64,000 nucleotides of DNA from Flavobacteriales bacterium (GTDB lineage Bacteria > Bacteroidota > Bacteroidia > Flavobacteriales > Flavobacteriaceae): positions 55,655-119,654 of the forward strand of contig JBBSSR010000008.1 in assembly GCA_038241955.1 (NCBI GenBank), in the 5' to 3' direction. Below the pieces are notes generated by a model that saw only the letters and a list, made by a program, of their open reading frames with translations, ran no database searches and was not told the origin of the DNA. The translations under genes and the position numbers were made by a program. Of this stretch, positions 19,265 through 27,506 are shown in pieces. Position 1 is the first letter of the stretch; the number at the start of each line of letters is the position of its first letter.

Positions 19265-19461
19265 TTTTATTTTTTAACCATTAAGAAATTAAGCTTCATT
19301 AAGAGTTATTCTTTTATTAAAAAAATTTTGAGAGCATTCTTATATCCTGTACGACTCCTAATTGTGAAAAATTTATATTTAATCTTGAACCTTTTTATTT
19401 TTTAACCATTAAGAAATTAAGTTTCAGTAAGAGTTATATTAAATTTTACAAATTTCTTAAT
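19265..19461. repeat. 45-bp direct repeat (TTAACCATTAAGAAATTAAG core) upstream of hemC
   Basis: 19265-19309 and 19393-19437 differ at 2 positions; attaagaaatt (19408-19418) pairs with aatttcttaat (19451-19461). Confidence 0.8.
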
Positions 19462-19861
19462 CTTCTAATCTAGAAAAGAATTCGTTTACAAATGGCTTCA
19501 TTGACTTTGTTATGTTTGTTGAATTAAAATTAATCAATAACCCTTGAGGTCTTTGCAATAATTTCATATAGGTTAATAATTGTGCTTCATGAATAGGTAA
19601 TAGAGTCTCTATTGCTTTTAATTCAACAACAACACAATCATTCACTAGTAAATCGATTCTTAAATTTGATTCCAATTCAAGATCATAATAATCAATCTTG
19701 ACTTCCAATTGTTGTTTTACGTCATATCCGTTTCGTTCTAATTCATATTTCAAACATTGCTCATAAATACTTTCTAAAAGTCCAGGTCCAAGTTCTTTAT
19801 GAACCTTTATGGCAAATCCAGTAATTTCATAAGACAACTTGGTAACGTCTTTTTTTGTCAT
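19457..19861 (-). CDS. GxxExxY family protein (PD-(D/E)XK nuclease-like)
   Basis: LGPGLLESIY motif, RIDLLV, VVELKA, AQLLTYMKL, GLLINF; 134 aa. Confidence 0.92.
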   Translation of the reverse strand: MTKKDVTKLSYEITGFAIKVHKELGPGLLESIYEQCLKYELERNGYDVKQQLEVKIDYYDLELESNLRIDLLVNDCVVVELKAIETLLPIHEAQLLTYMKLLQRPQGLLINFNSTNITKSMKPFVNEFFSRLED

Positions 19862-19941: not shown

Positions 19942-21246
19942 TTAAGACAAATTAATTTTATATTTTTCTTCGACTTCTGAACGTGCGTTTTTTGGTGCCA
20001 ATTGTCCAATTTTGAATACTTTTTCGATCCATTCGATGCTTTCATCTACAGTAGTATTCTCTTCTTTTAAGTGACTTGCAAAATGATTAGTGATTTTTTG
20101 AATAATTCTAGAACTAATCAATTCGGCTTGCTCTTCATCAAAATTAGATAATTTTTTTCTTTGAAAAGCCAATTCTGTCGTTACAATATCGTTTAATTTA
20201 GCTTTTAATGCGTGGATAGTTGGGGCATATTTGCGACCATTCATCCAGGTATTGAATTCTAATTTCATGTCTTCGATAATTGCTTCGGCGGCAGGAATGT
20301 GATTTTTTCTTCTTTCTAAAGTATCATCTGTCATTTGAGACAAATAATCCAGGTGAATTAAAGTTACACCTTCGATTTCAGCTACATCTGGATTTACATT
20401 TCTTGGAATGGATAAATCTAAAATTAGTAGCGGTTTTTTTAAATTTAACAGTGCTTTGTCAATTGTTGGATTTTGAGCGCCAGTGGCAACAACCAATACA
20501 TCCGTTTGGTGTATTTCTTCTTGCAGATTTGCATAATCTTTTACAATAACATTTAGTTTTCCAGCTATTTTTTCGGCTTTATTCTTGGTTCTATTCACCA
20601 AAGTGATGTGCCCGTTTTTAGTGTGTTTTACTAAATTTTCACAGGTATTACGACCAATTTTTCCTGTTCCGAATAATAGAATGTTTTTATCTCCGACGTT
20701 TTCTACATTGCGGATAATATATTGAACCGATGCAAACGAAACCGATGTTGCACCAGAAGATATTTCAGTATCTGTTTTGATTTTTTTGCTCGCTTGTATG
20801 ACAGAATTTACTAAACGATCTAAAAAAGTGTTTACTAAATTTAGTGATTTACTTTGATTAAAAGCATTTTTAATTTGGCTGATGATTTCAAAATCACCTA
20901 AAATCTGACTATCTAAACCAGTTCCCACGCGAAACATGTGATTAACAGCTTCTTGATTTTTATAAATAAAAGCAACTTCTCTAAATTCTTCTACCGTACC
21001 ATTACTATTTTCGCAAAGTAATTTTATTAACTCATATGGGTGATTGGCAAAACCATAAATCTCTGTTCTATTACAAGTAGAAGTAACGATTAATGATTCT
21101 ATTCCTTCGACTTGAGCTTGAGCTAGTAAATTAGATTGTGCTTCTGCATTTAAACTAAACTTTCCTCTAATTGTAGCATCAGCTTTTTTATAACTTAAAC
21201 CTAAAGCGTAAAAAGTGGTCGTTCTGGACATGTTAAAATTTTCCAT
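19942..21246 (-). CDS. hemA: Glutamyl-tRNA reductase
   Basis: STCNRTEIY, GLDSQILGDFEIISQIK, GTGKIG NADPH motif, LDLSIPRNV. Confidence 0.96.
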   Translation of the reverse strand: MENFNMSRTTTFYALGLSYKKADATIRGKFSLNAEAQSNLLAQAQVEGIESLIVTSTCNRTEIYGFANHPYELIKLLCENSNGTVEEFREVAFIYKNQEAVNHMFRVGTGLDSQILGDFEIISQIKNAFNQSKSLNLVNTFLDRLVNSVIQASKKIKTDTEISSGATSVSFASVQYIIRNVENVGDKNILLFGTGKIGRNTCENLVKHTKNGHITLVNRTKNKAEKIAGKLNVIVKDYANLQEEIHQTDVLVVATGAQNPTIDKALLNLKKPLLILDLSIPRNVNPDVAEIEGVTLIHLDYLSQMTDDTLERRKNHIPAAEAIIEDMKLEFNTWMNGRKYAPTIHALKAKLNDIVTTELAFQRKKLSNFDEEQAELISSRIIQKITNHFASHLKEENTTVDESIEWIEKVFKIGQLAPKNARSEVEEKYKINLS

Positions 21247-21567: not shown

Positions 21568-21598
21568 AAAAACGCTATCTGAAAAAGATAGCGTTTTT
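21568..21598 (-). terminator. Intrinsic terminator (bidirectional type) after the globin gene
   Basis: aaaaacgctatct-gaaaa-agatagcgttttt perfect 13-bp stem. Confidence 0.75.
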
Positions 21599-21612: not shown

Positions 21613-22206
21613 TTATTTCTGAACAATTGGAGTTCTTAAAGATTCTAAAACTGCAACAATATCAGTATACAGTTCTGTGTTTGCAGCAACTCCATTTTCA
21701 TTAGCAGCGGCACCAACATATCCTTCGAATTTTGTGTACTCAGCAGCATTAATTTTAGTTCCCATACGTGGGTTTTTTGCTGGATCGTGAGTAGCAACCA
21801 TATTCAAACCAGAATACGTGTTTACTGCATTGGTTCCTCCTGTATTGTACGAGAAGAAATCCGTTAAATTGTCAGATAATTTAGCAATATTTGTTGCTTG
21901 CGTATCGCCTGTTTCTGCCAAAAGAGGTGCAAAATGAGCGCTTAAATTTCCTGTAGCATTCGCTTGCACATCGGCAACAATCAATCCTATTGTTCTATTA
22001 ACAACTTTACGGTAAGACAATCTTCCTGCTTCGATCATTTTTCCAGTATTATCAGGATCAGGAACCATTTTTGTTCCGCCCAATCGTTCGTAGATTGACG
22101 CTTTTTCCATTGGGATAACTGGAGCGTCTTCATCCTTGCTACAAGATGTAAAAGCCGCAGCCGTTACTAGTAATACACCTAAGGTGATTTTTGAGAAATT
22201 TTTCAT
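21613..22206 (-). CDS. Lipoprotein with group I truncated hemoglobin (2/2 globin)-like domain
   Basis: Lipobox FTSC followed by SKDED; SIYERLGG, TGG..YSGLNMVATH (proximal His), KINAAEYTKF, VLESLRTPIV match trHbN-type hallmarks. Confidence 0.75.
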   Translation of the reverse strand: MKNFSKITLGVLLVTAAAFTSCSKDEDAPVIPMEKASIYERLGGTKMVPDPDNTGKMIEAGRLSYRKVVNRTIGLIVADVQANATGNLSAHFAPLLAETGDTQATNIAKLSDNLTDFFSYNTGGTNAVNTYSGLNMVATHDPAKNPRMGTKINAAEYTKFEGYVGAAANENGVAANTELYTDIVAVLESLRTPIVQK

Positions 22207-22224
22207 GATAAAAAGTATTAAAGG

Positions 22225-22659
22225 TTAATTAAAAATTTGATTTAAAGATCTAGCCATTTTATAGCTGAAGCTGTTTTGGTCTATTGGACATACTTCTTTG
22301 TTTGCCAGATTTGCAGCCAAAATATAACGATGAGCGTTATACGGCCTTTTAGTCATTAATTCGTCATAGACCTTTTTCGAATTAGTGACCGTATTGTTAT
22401 GGAAGTACACCACAACATTCTTTTTTACAATTATAGAATCGGAGGTTAATCCTTTAATCGATCTTAAATCTGCACAAATTTGTTTGGCTTGATCAGCGTC
22501 TATAGCTTCCTTAAAGTCAATACGACTAACTTGCAGATTAGGACTTTCATAAACTGCGGGTTTAGCCGTAATAATGTGAAAAAGCATAATTCCAATAAAT
22601 AGCACAACAACTACTACTGCTGTCCATAGTCCTCTTTTTATTATTTTGTTATTTTTCAT
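22225..22659 (-). CDS. Membrane-anchored hypothetical protein, HMA/ferredoxin-like fold without CxxC
   Basis: N-terminal TM ending in LFHI; beta-alpha-beta-beta-alpha pattern (SRIDF..DQAKQICADLRSIKGL..NVVVYF..KKVYDEL); C-terminal VCP. Confidence 0.65.
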   Translation of the reverse strand: MKNNKIIKRGLWTAVVVVVLFIGIMLFHIITAKPAVYESPNLQVSRIDFKEAIDADQAKQICADLRSIKGLTSDSIIVKKNVVVYFHNNTVTNSKKVYDELMTKRPYNAHRYILAANLANKEVCPIDQNSFSYKMARSLNQIFN

Positions 22660-22852
22660 ATCGTTATTCTTTAAAATTGCTTTGATGTTAAAATGATATA
22701 CGAGGACTTTTTAATTTTGGTTTGTTTTTACAACAAAAAATATTTATTTAGAATTACTTTAAATAATTAAAACAAAAATAATCTCATGCTTTTTTATACA
22801 TCTAAATTATTTAAGGCTTGAATTCTACTGTACTTAAATTTTTAAATTTATT

Positions 22853-23692
22853 TTAGAAAACTCTAGCGAGATTAAAACCAAAAAATACATCTCCTGTTTT
22901 CCAGTCTCCAGTTGTTCTTGCTAGATATCCAGCTTCGTCAATACCTTGAGAATTGGTAAAATGCATTTGAAAAACGTGTCCCCCCGTTTCTAAATCAAAA
23001 CCAATAGAAAACTCATTAACATAAAGAGAACCTGGTGCTCTATTTAAATGTGCTGCATAATCCATGTTTAAAGACCAGCGTTTAGAGAACTTATACCTTC
23101 CACCAAAACCTAAAGCATATTGTGTATTACTTTGTGCTTCATCATCTACAAAATTTTCATGAAAAAACGTAGGCGCTATTTCCAAAGAAAGTTTTTCAGT
23201 AAATTTTCTAGAAATTAATAATTGAGCGACATACGTAAACCGATCTTCGAATTGCAGTTTCGGATAATTACTTTCTTTAAGTGTATTATTGATAGATAAA
23301 CTGTTAAATCCAACTATGGCTACGGGCAAACCACCTTTAACTTGAGGAAACAAAGTGTACTTTACAGCTAAGTCATAAGCTAGTTGACTTCTTCCAGCAC
23401 TTACTTGAAGTCCGTCAATTACTCCGTAAATGAATTTAATTTGAGTATTTGCGTTATCTAATCCGTAGAAACCTTCAAAGCCATCCTTCAAAGAGCCAAA
23501 TCGGTGTGCTACAACAAAATACATATCGCCTTTTGCTGCTACTTTTGTAGACTCTAGATTAACAATTTTTAAAGCTTTAAATGCAGAAGCTACTTTTTCG
23601 TTGGTAACAGGAATATCAACACCTGCCAACAAATCATTTTGGGAAAAAGTCAATAATGGTAATAATAATACTAATAGGAAAAGTTTTTTCAT
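22853..23692 (-). CDS. DUF5777 family outer-membrane beta-barrel protein
   Basis: Signal peptide; SAFKALKIVNLES, HRFG, ETGGHVFQMHFTNSQ; terminal GFNLARVF (OM-type aromatic C-terminus). Confidence 0.82.
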   Translation of the reverse strand: MKKLFLLVLLLPLLTFSQNDLLAGVDIPVTNEKVASAFKALKIVNLESTKVAAKGDMYFVVAHRFGSLKDGFEGFYGLDNANTQIKFIYGVIDGLQVSAGRSQLAYDLAVKYTLFPQVKGGLPVAIVGFNSLSINNTLKESNYPKLQFEDRFTYVAQLLISRKFTEKLSLEIAPTFFHENFVDDEAQSNTQYALGFGGRYKFSKRWSLNMDYAAHLNRAPGSLYVNEFSIGFDLETGGHVFQMHFTNSQGIDEAGYLARTTGDWKTGDVFFGFNLARVF

Positions 23693-23725
23693 GAGATTAT
23701 ATTTTAAATTATTTGTGTTTAAGGT

Positions 23726-24115
23726 TTAACGAACAACAGAGCTTTGATCTATTTTAAATTCTCCAAGTAGCTCATCGTATCCTAAAAAGCGTGCTTTGAT
23801 TTTTACCGTTTTACCCGCTTCTAGATTTTTTGGCAAGTTGGATTTGAAGGTTGCAAAAACTTTCTTACCCAAAACGATTCCCTTATTTGCCATATCTACA
23901 GCCGATATTGTTGCTGTTAATTCGACCGTTTTATTTTGATACTTATTATAAGCTAGCGAATCATTTACTGTGAACTCTTTTTCAAGTCCATCAATTGTTA
24001 CCACATAATCGGCCGTTTCATTGCTTATATCTCTATGCGCTTTATACGTATAGCTGTAAACCAAGATTCCAGCTGTCAAGCAAATCGCGATTCCTAGAAG
24101 TATTTTCTTTTTCAT
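23726..24115 (-). CDS. Membrane-anchored OB-fold protein (tRNA_anti-like)
   Basis: N-terminal TM, YKAHRD, NKYQNKTVELTATI, GKTVKIKARFLGYDELL. Confidence 0.72.
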   Translation of the reverse strand: MKKKILLGIAICLTAGILVYSYTYKAHRDISNETADYVVTIDGLEKEFTVNDSLAYNKYQNKTVELTATISAVDMANKGIVLGKKVFATFKSNLPKNLEAGKTVKIKARFLGYDELLGEFKIDQSSVVR

Positions 24116-24272
24116 AACAAGTTTTAATTGTGTTTGAACTATCTACGTTAAAAACTATGTTTTGGTTTTAAATAATAAATATGCACTTCAAAAAAACTAC
24201 AGGATACATTTTACCGTATATGTTCTAGAATCGCCTTTATGCCTCCTTATTTAATTTTTAAAACCAGTTCTT

Positions 24273-24641
24273 ATGAATTTGAAAACTATTTTTTTTGCCT
24301 TATCATTTTCCGTACTTCTTGTGGGTTGTACTGATGAAAACCCAAACAGTTTAATGGCTGATACCCCTTCTACGGGCGTAACAACGTATACCCAAAATGT
24401 AAAATCGATAATCGACAACAATTGTGTTGTATGCCACGCAGCGGTTCCAAAAAATGGAGCTCCAATGTCCTTAGTGACCTACGGCCAAGTGAAAGAAGCT
24501 ATTTTAAATCGTGGTTTACTTAACAGAATTTCATTAGAAAACGGCAACAGTTCTTTAATGCCAAATGGTGGACCAAGAATGCCACAAGCCACAATAGATG
24601 TTATTGTTAAATGGGAAAAAGACGGATTACTAGAACAATAA
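24273..24641 (+). CDS. c-type cytochrome lipoprotein
   Basis: Lipobox LVGC followed by TDE; TYTQNVKSIIDNNCVVCH; LMPNGG..MP; IVKWEKDG. Confidence 0.85.
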   Translation: MNLKTIFFALSFSVLLVGCTDENPNSLMADTPSTGVTTYTQNVKSIIDNNCVVCHAAVPKNGAPMSLVTYGQVKEAILNRGLLNRISLENGNSSLMPNGGPRMPQATIDVIVKWEKDGLLEQ

Positions 24642-24655
24642 TTAAAAGTAGAATT

Positions 24656-25207
24656 ATGAAAAAAATTTTACTTGTAACAATGCTACTCCTCTCTTTGAAT
24701 GTGTTTTCCCAAGAGAAAATGCTTACCAAATCAGGAACAATAACGTTCGACGCTTCTTTTCCTACTTTTGATGAAGTAAAGGCCACTAATAATAGCGTGA
24801 CTTTTATTTTAAATCAAGAGACGGGAGAAGTAGCCTGTTTGGCGTTAATGAAAGCTTTCCATTTTGAAATCGCGTTGATGGAGGAACATTTTAATGAGAA
24901 TTATATGGAAACCGACCAATATCCCAAAGCAATTTTTAGAGGACAAATACAAGAATTTGACCAAAAAACACTTACCACCAATGCAAAAGACTACACGTTA
25001 ATAGGAAAGTTAGAACTGCATGGTAAATCTAAAGACATCAACGTTATTGCGCAGATTAGCAAGGTTGGACCTAGAATTAAAATTGTTTCTACATTCTCGG
25101 TAAATACAAGTGATTACAGCATTCCAATTCCAACGCTTATAAAATATAAATTGGCTAGTAAAGTAAATGTTCAAATTAGCGCTGTTATGATCCTTGATTA
25201 CAAATGA
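24656..25207 (+). CDS. YceI family protein
   Basis: Signal peptide from ATG 24656; LMKAFHFEIALMEEHFNENYMETDQYPKAIF; GKLELHGKSK. Confidence 0.85.
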   Translation: MKKILLVTMLLLSLNVFSQEKMLTKSGTITFDASFPTFDEVKATNNSVTFILNQETGEVACLALMKAFHFEIALMEEHFNENYMETDQYPKAIFRGQIQEFDQKTLTTNAKDYTLIGKLELHGKSKDINVIAQISKVGPRIKIVSTFSVNTSDYSIPIPTLIKYKLASKVNVQISAVMILDYK

Positions 25208-25519
25208 TAATGATTCGTTTATATCAATTTTTTAAAGAAAAAAAGTCATTTCAGCAGTAATAGTCGTTGTACAATTCTTTTAAAAATTGGATAAAAGATG
25301 ATGAAATCTTTAGCCAAAACGCCATTCGAAACGTAGTATTAAAATTTAGAACTTTTGCTTAGCAGCAACCTTGCATTCGTTTTATCCTTAAAACAATAAA
25401 GATTCTATAAATTTAGGATCAAACAAAGGATAAACCACGAAAAATATCTAATTTTGAAAGAAAAATTATTCATTGTCATAAGAAAGACAATTGTAACTTT
25501 ACTAACGAAGATCAATAAA

Positions 25520-26386
25520 ATGCAGGAAGAAATTAAAATTGATGATGATTTTATTTTGATTCGTTTTCAAAATAATACCAATGAAATAAAAACTTTTCAA
25601 CGTCCAATTGAATTGGGATTGATTCAATTTCATTTTGGTTTAAAAGGAAATGCCAATTATATTTTCAATCAGGGAAATTATAACCTAAAGCTCAACGAAG
25701 AAAAAGCACTACTTTTTTATAATACTGAAAAAGAATTGCCGTTGCATGTTGAAATGGCTCCAAAATCTTGGTTGATTTCTATCTTTGTTTCTATCAAAAA
25801 GTTCCATGGCTTATTTACTACAGATGCGGAACACATACCTTTTTTAAGCAAAGAAAACAAAGAGAAAAAATACTATAACGAAAGTGACATTAGTCCCTCA
25901 ATGGCGATTGTTCTGAATCAAATGTTTCATTATAATTTGAATCCATCAATAAAGAACTTATATTATAAAGGTAAAGGCTACGAACTATTGAGTTTGTTTT
26001 TCAATAGAAATCAAGATCCGAACGCCGAACAATGTCCTTTTTTAGTTGATGAAGAAAATGTACTTAAAATTAAAAAAGCCAAAGAAATCATAATTGCAAA
26101 TATGGCCGAACCGCCAAGTTTACAAGAATTAGCAGATCAAATAGGGTTGACATTAAAGAAACTCAAAATGGGTTTTAAGCAAATTTATGGCGATACCGTT
26201 TACGGATTTCTATTCGATTATAAAATGGATACCGCTCGAAAATTACTCGATAGCGGTTCGTATAATGTAAACGAAGTTGGTCTTAAAATTGGCTACAGCA
26301 CAGGAAGTCATTTCATTGCAGCATTTAAGAAGAAATTTGCTACTACTCCAAAAAAATACCTGATGTCTTTGAATAGCAATGTTTAA
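25520..26386 (+). CDS. AraC family transcriptional regulator (PchR/YbtA-like), upstream of hemH
   Basis: PPSLQELADQIGLTLKKLKMGFKQIYGDTVYG ... VNEVGLKIGYSTGSHFIAAFKKKF. Start set at MQEE (25520); upstream TTG at 25454 is an alternative. Confidence 0.9.
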   Translation: MQEEIKIDDDFILIRFQNNTNEIKTFQRPIELGLIQFHFGLKGNANYIFNQGNYNLKLNEEKALLFYNTEKELPLHVEMAPKSWLISIFVSIKKFHGLFTTDAEHIPFLSKENKEKKYYNESDISPSMAIVLNQMFHYNLNPSIKNLYYKGKGYELLSLFFNRNQDPNAEQCPFLVDEENVLKIKKAKEIIIANMAEPPSLQELADQIGLTLKKLKMGFKQIYGDTVYGFLFDYKMDTARKLLDSGSYNVNEVGLKIGYSTGSHFIAAFKKKFATTPKKYLMSLNSNV

Positions 26387-26489
26387 ATGTGCATCAGTTT
26401 TAGATATTAAATTATAAGAAAAAAATAACATTTATCATATTTCAAAAAAGTGGGTTTCGCTACTTTTGAACAAAATTAAAAATCTGCAT

Positions 26490-27506
26490 ATGAAAGGCGT
26501 ATTATTAGTAAACTTAGGTTCTCCAGAAAGTCCAACTCCAAAAGATGTAAAGCCATATTTAGATGAGTTTTTAATGGATAAATACGTAATAGATGTTCCG
26601 TTTTTATTAAGAGCATTGTTGGTACGTGGAATTATTCTTAGAACTAGACCCAAAAAATCAGCCGCCGCTTACGCAAAAATATGGTGGGATGAAGGTTCAC
26701 CACTTGTCGTTATTTCAAAAAGAATGCACGAAAAAGTAAAACCTTTGGTAAACGTTCCTGTTGCTTTGGCGATGCGTTACGGAAATCCTTCTATGCTTGC
26801 AGGACTTCAAGAATTGCACGACAAAGGAGTAAATGAAGTGATGCTTTTCCCTTTGTATCCACAACATGCCATGGCTTCTACTACAACAATACTAGTTTTA
26901 GCCGAAGAATTGCGTAAAAAGCATTTCCCAGAAATGAAATTTACCATTGTTCCCGCCTTTTATAACAAACCAGATTATATAAAAAATGTAGCTGATTCTA
27001 TTAAAAAGAGCTTAGAAACTTTTGAATACGATCATCTTTTGTTTTCGTATCACGGTATTCCGGAACGACATATTCGTAAAACGGATGTAACCAAATCACA
27101 TTGCAAAATAGATGGGTCTTGCTGCAACACACCATCACCAGCACATGAATTTTGCTACCGCCACCAATGTTATGAAACGACCAAACAAGTTGTAAAACTA
27201 TTGGGAATTCCTGAAGGTAAATACAGCCAAACTTTTCAGTCACGATTGGCGGGTGACAAATGGCTCACACCTTATACTGATGTTGAAATAAACAAAATGC
27301 CAGAAAAGGGAATTAAGAGTTTAGCCGTAGTAACGCCAGCATTTGTTTCGGATTGTTTAGAAACACTCGAAGAAATCGCCATGGAAGCCAACCACCAATT
27401 CAAAGAAAATGGAGGCGAAAACTTCTTCGCAGTTCCTTGCTTGAATGATAGTGACGAATGGTGTCAAACAGTTGGAAATTGGATAAATGAGTGGGTTGGA
27501 AATTAA
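26490..27506 (+). CDS. hemH: Ferrochelatase
   Basis: GVLLVNLGSP, GSPL, LYPQH, FSYHGIP, FQSR..WLTPYT, FVSDCLETLEEI. Confidence 0.97.
   Translation: MKGVLLVNLGSPESPTPKDVKPYLDEFLMDKYVIDVPFLLRALLVRGIILRTRPKKSAAAYAKIWWDEGSPLVVISKRMHEKVKPLVNVPVALAMRYGNPSMLAGLQELHDKGVNEVMLFPLYPQHAMASTTTILVLAEELRKKHFPEMKFTIVPAFYNKPDYIKNVADSIKKSLETFEYDHLLFSYHGIPERHIRKTDVTKSHCKIDGSCCNTPSPAHEFCYRHQCYETTKQVVKLLGIPEGKYSQTFQSRLAGDKWLTPYTDVEINKMPEKGIKSLAVVTPAFVSDCLETLEEIAMEANHQFKENGGENFFAVPCLNDSDEWCQTVGNWINEWVGN

Follow-up and report, generated by a model that had tools for sequence, protein, structure and literature searches.

A conserved DUF5777 barrel, YceI and cytochrome c gene set of Flavobacteria as a candidate envelope electron-transfer module, accompanied by a predicted surface globin in the Flavobacterium johnsoniae clade

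Introduction

In Burkholderia cenocepacia, the YceI-family lipocalin BcnA and the cytochrome b561 LcoA limit lipid peroxidation, a pairing found also as yceI-yceJ of Escherichia coli (PMC9113575), and in Cellvibrio japonicus the proteins Cbp2D and Cbp2E carry a YceI-like X158 domain that binds ubiquinone-8 together with c-type cytochrome domains, X183 and X132, that reduce lytic polysaccharide monooxygenases (PMC8981238). Here we analyse a locus of six genes in which a YceI-family gene and a monohaem cytochrome c gene stand beside genes for a DUF5777 outer-membrane barrel, a membrane-anchored OB-fold protein, a 144-residue protein (p144) and a globin-like lipoprotein. The locus occupies positions 21,613 to 25,207 of a 64,000-nucleotide stretch from a Flavobacteriales bacterium (GenBank assembly GCA_038241955.1, contig JBBSSR010000008.1, positions 55,655 to 119,654 of the forward strand), called the window below. 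An initial annotation had taken the six genes for one system, serving either to load haem onto surface lipoproteins or to exchange electrons or gases at the surface. We report that four of the genes form a widely conserved core, and we tentatively read the locus as an undescribed envelope electron-transfer module whose terminal carrier is, here, an exported globin, a reading to which we give a little less than an even chance.

The locus resembles BcnA-LcoA in that a YceI-family protein is genetically coupled to a small envelope cytochrome, with a (here proposed) redox role at membranes, but the window cytochrome is a c-type lipoprotein rather than an integral-membrane b561, no b561 is found among the neighbours, and no PsrA-type reductase is present; the window adds an outer-membrane barrel, an OB-fold anchor and a surface carrier, and it belongs to the Bacteroidota. 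With Cbp2D and Cbp2E, which have been shown to feed an extracellular copper enzyme, it shares a YceI-like module and monohaem c-type cytochromes outside the cytoplasm; in those proteins, however, the domains are fused in secreted CBM2 proteins, whereas the window has separate genes and no carbohydrate-binding module, and its barrel and OB-fold protein have no counterpart there.

The porin-cytochrome conduits MtrCAB of Shewanella and Pcc of Geobacter are built from barrels of at least 20 strands that sheathe decahaem cytochromes. As in those conduits, the genes for an outer-membrane barrel and for periplasmic and surface redox proteins stand together, and passage of electrons to the surface is the role proposed; by contrast, the window barrel is modelled with 12 strands, its partners are monohaem or mononuclear with a single CxxCH motif, and there is no sequence relationship. 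Eukaryotic ferric reductases that combine Reeler, DOMON and cytochrome b561 domains are those of the FRRS1/SDR2 type. Relatives of our module also combine DOMON, Reeler-like and cytochrome parts at an outward-facing membrane, a likeness between parts lists only, but the version in the window has no DOMON, Reeler domain or b561.

Results

A conserved four-gene core with a clade-specific addition

Genomic neighbourhoods were surveyed around barrels containing the exact peptide ETGGHVFQ, a pattern taken from an alignment of 22 diverse DUF5777 proteins (A3). The survey covered the best 80 of at least 600 matches, on one-genome-per-species contigs with 10-kb flanks; three F. johnsoniae-type loci were added, giving 83 fetched loci, or 81 after duplicates were removed, and all mechanically called open reading frames (ORFs) of these loci were searched with profiles built from the window proteins. 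The YceI gene adjoins the barrel gene in 77 of the 81 non-duplicate loci, the gene for the 122-residue monohaem cytochrome c lipoprotein in 76 and the gene for the membrane-anchored OB-fold protein in 66; all four stand together in 64. Gene order varies: OB-barrel-cytochrome-YceI in 23 loci, YceI-cytochrome divergent from OB-barrel, as in the window, in 17, and cytochrome-YceI-OB-barrel in nine. Because the partners are kept through at least three gene orders, we regard them as a conserved core, which is good evidence for a functional unit. The core is common in Flavobacteriaceae and occurs also in Weeksellaceae (Chryseobacterium) and Chitinophagales. We conclude that it is a widely conserved, unstudied envelope set of the Flavobacteria.

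Co-occurrence of all six genes, as first envisaged, thus holds for these four and fails for the globin gene, p144, the AraC subtype and the hem flanks, which are restricted to one Flavobacterium clade of four species and the window. The globin-like gene is present in six of the 83 fetched loci and p144 in the same six, while hemA adjoins the module in six and hemH in five; apart from the window, every locus with the globin gene, p144 or hem flanks comes from F. johnsoniae, F. panici, F. potami or F. flevense. Full-length orthologues of the window's AraC-family regulator (67-92% identity) are found in globin-bearing loci only. A general role for AraC in regulating the module was considered and rejected, as the AraC proteins beside the module in other genera share only the helix-turn-helix domain. 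On the barrel tree, the five globin-type barrels, the window's included, form one clade (support 100/96), which indicates a single gain. Around it lies a larger Flavobacterium clade (19 rows, support 100/99), the remaining members of which carry DOMON. The order hemH-AraC-YceI-cytochrome followed by OB-barrel-p144-globin-hemA is shared by loci ranging from F. flevense to F. johnsoniae, with outer flanks that vary (hemC, hemD and hemE present or absent). The window belongs to this F. johnsoniae-to-F. flevense clade, and the named sources of proteins nearly identical to its own point to Flavobacterium. The six genes are a four-gene conserved core plus a clade-specific add-on, not one evolutionary unit; their nesting in the haem pathway was correctly described for this clade but is a lineage-specific placement and not a property of the system.

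Further copies and variants of the set were seen in the surveyed loci. Two tandem YceI genes lie between the cytochrome and AraC genes in F. johnsoniae, F. panici and F. potami (L001-L005), where F. flevense and the window have a single YceI gene. F. ginsengiterrae, F. flavipigmentatum, F. anhuiense and F. sp. 270 (L064, L066, L067, L068) carry a second, paralogous OB-barrel-cytochrome-YceI module with a barrel ~47% identical, and the paralogous module of the F. johnsoniae group directly follows a set of genes for an extracytoplasmic-function (ECF) sigma factor, FecR, a TonB-dependent receptor and an acidic lipoprotein. ECF sigma/FecR/TonB-receptor genes are found within ~6 kb of the barrel gene in ~20 loci. 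A second nearby set without a cytochrome gene, OB-YceI-barrel or YceI-barrel, is present in L021, L042, L043, L049, L051, L052 and L060, and the barrels of these cytochrome-less sets form a deep, separate clade in the barrel tree (branch length 2.46, support 100/100).

Haem and copper proteins alternate in a slot beside the core

Next to the core, 28-29 loci (counted with a strict, DOMON-only profile) encode a protein of ~255 residues with a DOMON domain and a C-terminal sorting domain of the type IX secretion system (T9SS) (DOMON, 1.9e-13; Por_Secre_tail, 3.2e-16). A DOMON profile that included the T9SS C-terminal domain matched any T9SS cargo (53 loci), and the domain-only profile was used for the counts. 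A gene for an exported or periplasmic ankyrin-repeat protein adjoins DOMON in 22 of 23 cases. In 13 loci we found instead a T9SS-secreted cupredoxin of ~190 residues with a plastocyanin/azurin-type copper domain (Copper-bind, 2.5e-9; Por_Secre_tail, 5.5e-15); the type-1 copper motif C-x2-H-x2-5-M is present in 12 of these, the remaining copy being a truncated ORF. DOMON and cupredoxin alternate within a marine clade, even between sister species (Algibacter luteus and Algibacter sp.), which requires at least 9-15 changes on the barrel tree. That a haem-b and a copper protein replace one another is most simply explained if they are equivalent one-electron carriers.

No globin-bearing locus contains a DOMON or cupredoxin gene, and there is none anywhere within the 64-kb window. 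In L015 and L017, two DOMON-bearing members of the Flavobacterium clade that encloses the globin clade, the ankyrin and DOMON genes lie directly downstream of the barrel gene on the same strand, which is the position of p144 and the globin gene in the window. The p144-globin pair would then fill the slot held by DOMON or cupredoxin in relatives, as one further replacement; being a single event, this is suggestive but not statistically strong. On our reading, all identifiable occupants of the slot (DOMON, cupredoxin, globin) are electron carriers, with CBM96-like and FlgD-Ig-like cargo not obviously redox.

Other genes were recorded at or near the slot. Some loci hold T9SS cargo with a CBM96-like or FlgD-Ig-like domain (L028:9054-9971, L077:11889-12746), so that some occupants are not obviously redox proteins. 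In freshwater Flavobacterium loci (L007-L009, L012-L014, L016), an SO2930-family dihaem cytochrome c (TIGR03806, 6.4e-88) and a T9SS FG-GAP/ASPIC protein of ~685 residues are encoded just downstream, sometimes in duplicate.

Layout of the locus in the window

The six ORFs lie between hemA and AraC-hemH at the coordinates first annotated, four on the minus strand and two on the plus strand. The features of the locus and its flanks are as follows.

19942-21246, minus strand: hemA (glutamyl-tRNA reductase), the flank on the globin side; GlutR Pfam families on the F. johnsoniae orthologue; context, outside the conserved core
21568-21598, both strands: bidirectional intrinsic-terminator hairpin, between the globin gene and the hemA upstream region, ending the minus-strand unit
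21613-22206, minus strand: truncated-haemoglobin-like lipoprotein, 197 residues, lipobox FTSC; assigned by hhalign and Foldseek
22225-22659, minus strand: p144, 144 residues, one N-terminal membrane helix; paired with the globin gene in every locus having either
22853-23692, minus strand: DUF5777 outer-membrane beta-barrel, 279 residues
23726-24115, minus strand: membrane-anchored OB-fold protein (tRNA_anti-like), 129 residues, 33 nucleotides upstream of the barrel gene
24116-24272: divergent intergenic region, 157 nucleotides, separating the OB-barrel unit from the cytochrome-YceI unit
24273-24641, plus strand: monohaem class-I c-type cytochrome lipoprotein, 122 residues, lipobox LVGC, CVVCH, LMPNGG
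24611-25207, plus strand: YceI-family lipocalin-like periplasmic protein (ORF of 198 residues; likely gene 24656-25207)
25454-26386, plus strand: AraC-family regulator (likely gene 25520-26386; HTH_18, 6.2e-16), between the YceI gene and hemH
26466-27506, plus strand: hemH (ferrochelatase), the flank after AraC; context

The gap between the barrel and p144 genes measures 193 nucleotides and is AT-rich, so that three transcription units are possible in place of the two divergent ones first proposed. The 157-nucleotide intergenic region is presumably the site of both divergent promoters. The terminator, too, was correctly recognised: its 14-bp stem and U-run fold at -16.7 kcal/mol (z = -5.8), and none of the shuffled sequences folded equally well, although a simple terminator scan did not flag this hairpin. 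On the plus strand, the true start of the YceI gene is probably the methionine of MKKILL at 24656 rather than 24611, which gives a signal peptide ending in FSQ and removes the apparent overlap with the cytochrome gene. A gap of 312 nucleotides separates the YceI gene from AraC, whose true start is likely M23, at about 25520, since alignments with orthologues begin at residue 23.

A GxxExxY / PD-(D/E)XK_3 gene (19457-19861, minus strand; Pfam, 2.6e-39; TIGR04256, 1.9e-41) lies between hemA and hemC of the window. Since no gene separates hemA from hemC in F. flevense (L046; 13682 to 13769), the GxxExxY gene of the window looks inserted.

A divergent truncated haemoglobin predicted at the cell surface

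The 197-residue lipoprotein had been called a truncated-haemoglobin (trHb)-like globin, and profile-profile comparison agrees: aligned by hhalign with group-I trHbs (trHbN), its family matched along 116 columns that span helices A to H, with a probability of 89.2% and an E-value of 2.2e-6. The trHbN alignment comprised four sequences, two from PDB hits, one identical to 1S69 and one taken to be that of Mycobacterium tuberculosis HbN. With one sequence in place of the family, the hhalign match was weak (probability 14%); no Pfam or NCBIfam family was matched at E <= 1, the Bac_globin model included, and searches of solved-structure sequences with the single sequence, the family profile or the C-terminal half returned nothing useful. 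The AlphaFold2 model, computed from a shallow alignment (at least 79% identity), is poor (predicted local distance difference test, pLDDT, 50.7), and a Foldseek search of the PDB with this poor model gave group-I trHbs as all of its top 12 matches (E 0.03-1.3). Judged by these alignments, the lipoprotein is a real but divergent member of the group-I trHb fold and is predicted to bind haem.

Compared with the group-I trHbs M. tuberculosis HbN, Synechocystis GlbN and Chlamydomonas THB1, the window globin is colinear over the 2-on-2 fold from helix A to helix H and keeps the Gly-Gly motifs (G43-G44, G123-G124) and Phe CD1 (F92), which are aligned with trHbN and invariant, as well as the proximal His F8, H140 being aligned with His70 of GlbN. 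It differs in having a lipoprotein signal peptide with a surface-export signal, in four insertions that add ~36 residues, and in scoring below the Pfam globin thresholds. At the distal positions TyrB10, GlnE7 and GlnE11, hhalign places I73, L110 and L114, so that the polar network is absent and the predicted pocket, which is apolar, is unlike those of trHb members that process oxygen (O2) or nitric oxide (NO). The mature protein has only two histidines, H91 and H140, both invariant. An apolar pocket with two invariant histidines would suit a redox carrier, possibly bis-His-ligated, better than an O2/NO-binding trHbN.

To our knowledge, globins are almost always cytoplasmic, and this family is confined to Flavobacterium. 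The residues from the lipobox cysteine onwards read C-S-K-D-E-D in the window, C-S-D-D-D-D in F. flevense and C-S-S-N-D-D-E in the F. johnsoniae group. Surface-export signals of Bacteroidota have been defined experimentally as C-X-K-(D/E)2-X, SDDDD and SDDFE (PMC5080379), and from the match to this consensus we predict that the globin is probably displayed on the cell surface.

The barrel, cytochrome, YceI, OB-fold and p144 proteins

The assignment of the barrel to DUF5777 is secure (PF19089, 1.1e-85, 287 bits against a cutoff of 23.1, profile positions 1-247 of 247), with weak further Pfam matches to Phenol_MetA_deg (0.0035) and OMP_b-brl. Its signal peptide ends in FSQ and its C-terminus in ARVF, with a C-terminal Phe. 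The AlphaFold2 model (pLDDT 86.4) has 12 strands; Foldseek against the PDB gave only generic porins, of the NanC, KdgM, FapF and OmpG types (at most 15% identity), which offers no functional clue, and FadL was a weak structural match (TM-score 0.23-0.40). The motifs HRFG, FHEN and GGHVFQMH in the barrel, the lipoboxes FTSC and LVGC and the CVVCH site are present in the translations. In an alignment at 32-52% identity, barrel residues H63, Q117 and G272 are invariant, and R64, H178, the T236-G238 turn and H239 nearly so; ETGGHVFQ (235-242) shows no variation in A3, the subset of 22 sequences chosen for carrying it, and, by the order of strands in the secondary-structure string, we infer that this stretch sits at a periplasmic turn. 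A representative-sequence search returned 1,593 DUF5777 clusters at 50% identity. One relative, P0305 (456 residues), has a CxxCH-bearing Reeler domain fused to DUF5777; in two others the barrel occurs twice in tandem (P0242, 615 residues) or has an additional domain and, at its C-terminus, a long stretch rich in Lys and Glu (P0268, 536 residues). The initial annotation knew of no established function for DUF5777, and a full-text literature search found no paper mentioning it.

In the cytochrome, C19 of the lipobox, C51, C54 and H55 of the haem-binding site, M96 and P97 are invariant among 28 relatives, and 79 of 82 homologues have exactly one CxxCH. The Met of LMPNGG is the probable axial ligand, giving a predicted His/Met ligation. 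The window protein scores 22.6 bits, below the Pfam cutoff of 27, while 20 of the 28 relatives match Cytochrome_CBB3 (best 3.6e-7), and the family profile matches structures of cytochrome c6, a soluble electron carrier, at 1.4e-4. Acidic residues after the lipobox cysteine are less exactly placed than in the globin, with at least two D/E within +2 to +6 in 21 of 80.

The YceI assignment was likewise upheld (PF04264, 43.3 bits against a cutoff of 23.7, 6.4e-11). A literature search on YceI with Flavobacterium, johnsoniae or DOMON found nothing relevant; a Riemerella RNA-seq table lists a YceI gene up ~2-fold under iron limitation, which could not be tied to this module. The OB-fold protein of the window falls below the threshold of tRNA_anti-like (PF12869; 21.6 bits against 23.5, 1.7e-4), a family matched by 22 of its 25 relatives (best 6.5e-13). 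All homologues of p144 with an assigned genus, among the 464 found, are from Flavobacterium, and none has a Pfam domain; C62, C124, H28 and H87 are invariant, with the two cysteines 62 residues apart. Neither a Pfam nor an NCBIfam family is matched by p144 itself. Its identification as HMA-like is not supported: there is no Pfam HMA match, the CxxC metal site and the GMxCxxC loop are absent, and the term HMA appears only in automated UniRef names.

Discussion

From the constant make-up of the core, the locations predicted for its products and the way in which redox partners replace one another across the survey, we infer an entry point and a direction for electron flow, a role for the barrel and a class of acceptor. 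Electrons from the respiratory pool would be taken up by the c6-like cytochrome c lipoprotein, by an isoprenoid quinol carried on YceI, or by both; the small barrel would be the outer-membrane station at which periplasmic carriers meet the surface; and a surface one-electron carrier (the haem b of DOMON, the copper of the cupredoxin or, here, the haem b of the globin) would pass them to an acceptor outside the cell or in the outer membrane, for which Fe(III), oxygen or nitrogen radicals and lipid peroxyl radicals are candidates. In this lineage, the hem genes and AraC would couple haem supply to the two haem proteins. BcnA-LcoA (PMC9113575) and Cbp2D/E (PMC8981238) are precedents in which YceI-type proteins work with cytochromes in the redox chemistry of the envelope, and the fusion of a CxxCH-bearing Reeler domain to DUF5777 in one relative also speaks for a redox module. 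The route from inner membrane through periplasm and outer membrane to the surface that was first imagined for the six proteins is compatible with their predicted locations.

Several points weigh against an electron-transfer module of this kind. Electrons have no encoded exit from the inner membrane, as no cytochrome b561, Rieske protein or quinol oxidase is found in the locus; a 12-stranded barrel, if modelled correctly, is too narrow for a cytochrome, which leaves the crossing of the outer membrane unexplained; and the OB-fold protein and p144 have no assigned role. In 36 of the 81 loci, no terminal carrier could be recognised within 1 kb. The link between the globin pair and the core goes back to a single evolutionary event, with 193 nucleotides between p144 and the barrel gene, and haem binding by the globin is predicted from alignment, with a poor AlphaFold model (pLDDT 50.7) and Pfam globin models that missed the protein. 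The survey itself, seeded with ETGGHVFQ and confined to the best 80 of at least 600 matches, is biased to Flavobacteriaceae. A broader form of the proposal, in which Bacteroidota at large possess an outer-membrane electron route without multihaem cytochromes, running from YceI quinol to the DUF5777 barrel, cytochrome c and interchangeable surface carriers, with an exported trHb in the F. johnsoniae clade, is speculative, and we consider it unlikely as it stands.

Among the competing explanations, detoxification of the envelope fares best, although we hold it to be rather improbable. The YceI-cytochrome pair and the barrel would guard the outer membrane against lipid peroxyl radicals, superoxide or NO, with the globin as a surface scavenger of NO, O2 or peroxide, which amounts to a special case of a redox function with a toxic acceptor. 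Every part is located in the envelope, and group-I trHbs are classically NO-detoxifying; the globin, however, lacks the TyrB10/GlnE7/GlnE11 network on which the O2/NO chemistry of trHbN depends. BcnA, of the YceI family, and the cytochrome b561 LcoA lower membrane lipid peroxidation in Burkholderia (PMC9113575), but the locus has neither a cytochrome b561 nor an aldehyde reductase. A secreted cupredoxin or DOMON protein is not an obvious radical scavenger, and the ECF sigma/FecR/TonB-receptor set beside ~20 loci points more to nutrient acquisition.

Alternatively, there may be no unit beyond the core, the globin-p144 and AraC-hemH pairs having landed by chance beside the module in one ancestor, with the globin serving haem metabolism or acting alone. 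The single origin on the barrel tree, the AT-rich gap of 193 nucleotides before p144 and that of 312 before AraC, and the confinement of the globin and p144 families to Flavobacterium would all fit such an accident. Against it, the full arrangement has been kept from F. flevense to F. johnsoniae despite differing outer flanks, p144 and the globin gene have the position and orientation of ankyrin and DOMON in L015 and L017, and no locus combines the globin with a DOMON or cupredoxin gene; we find chance association quite improbable.

Trafficking of haem, in which YceI, barrel and OB-fold protein would either supply exported apo-haemoproteins (globin, DOMON) with haem b brought from the inner membrane or take up external haem, appears improbable as well. 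It would account for the placement between hemA and AraC-hemH in this clade and for two products being haem proteins, and exported b-type haemoproteins do need a supply of haem outside the cytoplasm. Ankyrin proteins, encoded beside DOMON in 22 of 23 cases, have elsewhere among bacteria been connected with the supply of haem to catalase, and ECF sigma/FecR/TonB-receptor genes occur within ~6 kb of the barrel in ~20 loci. Yet hem genes adjoin the module in only 5-6 of 83 loci, all of one clade, and in 13 loci the place of DOMON is taken by a copper cupredoxin, the two alternating even between sister species. A copper protein would have no use for a haem-delivery machine, and of the two functions suggested initially, surface electron exchange therefore fits better than haem loading; the narrow spread of the hem flanks tells in the same direction. 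Moreover, the universally conserved haem protein of the set is a covalent c-type cytochrome with its own maturation system, a carrier rather than cargo, and the known ligands of YceI are isoprenoids, not haem (PMC8981238). Least probable of all is transport of hydrophobic molecules, in which an isoprenoid or another lipid (a quinone, carotenoid, flexirubin-type pigment or fatty amide) would travel on YceI towards or away from a lateral-gate barrel resembling FadL/COG4313, the cytochrome being an accessory: YceI proteins do bind polyisoprenoids (PMC8981238), and the barrel has weak matches to Phenol_MetA_deg (0.0035) and OMP_b-brl and a 12-strand porin-like fold, but the FadL match is weak (TM-score 0.23-0.40), and neither a cytochrome c in 76 of 81 loci nor the redox nature of the variable partners would be explained.

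If the core and its slot do form a module that moves electrons to the surface, it could explain iron reduction, the feeding of extracellular oxidative enzymes or protection of the outer membrane in bacteria that are abundant polysaccharide degraders and associated with fish or plants. The clade of the window includes F. johnsoniae, a genetically tractable model whose variable partner is a haemoglobin-fold protein predicted at the surface. An exported globin would have to acquire its haem b outside the cytoplasm, which poses a puzzle; were the electron-transfer reading true, no earlier globin would be known with a redox role reserved for the extracytoplasmic space, and a route for haem insertion there would be needed.

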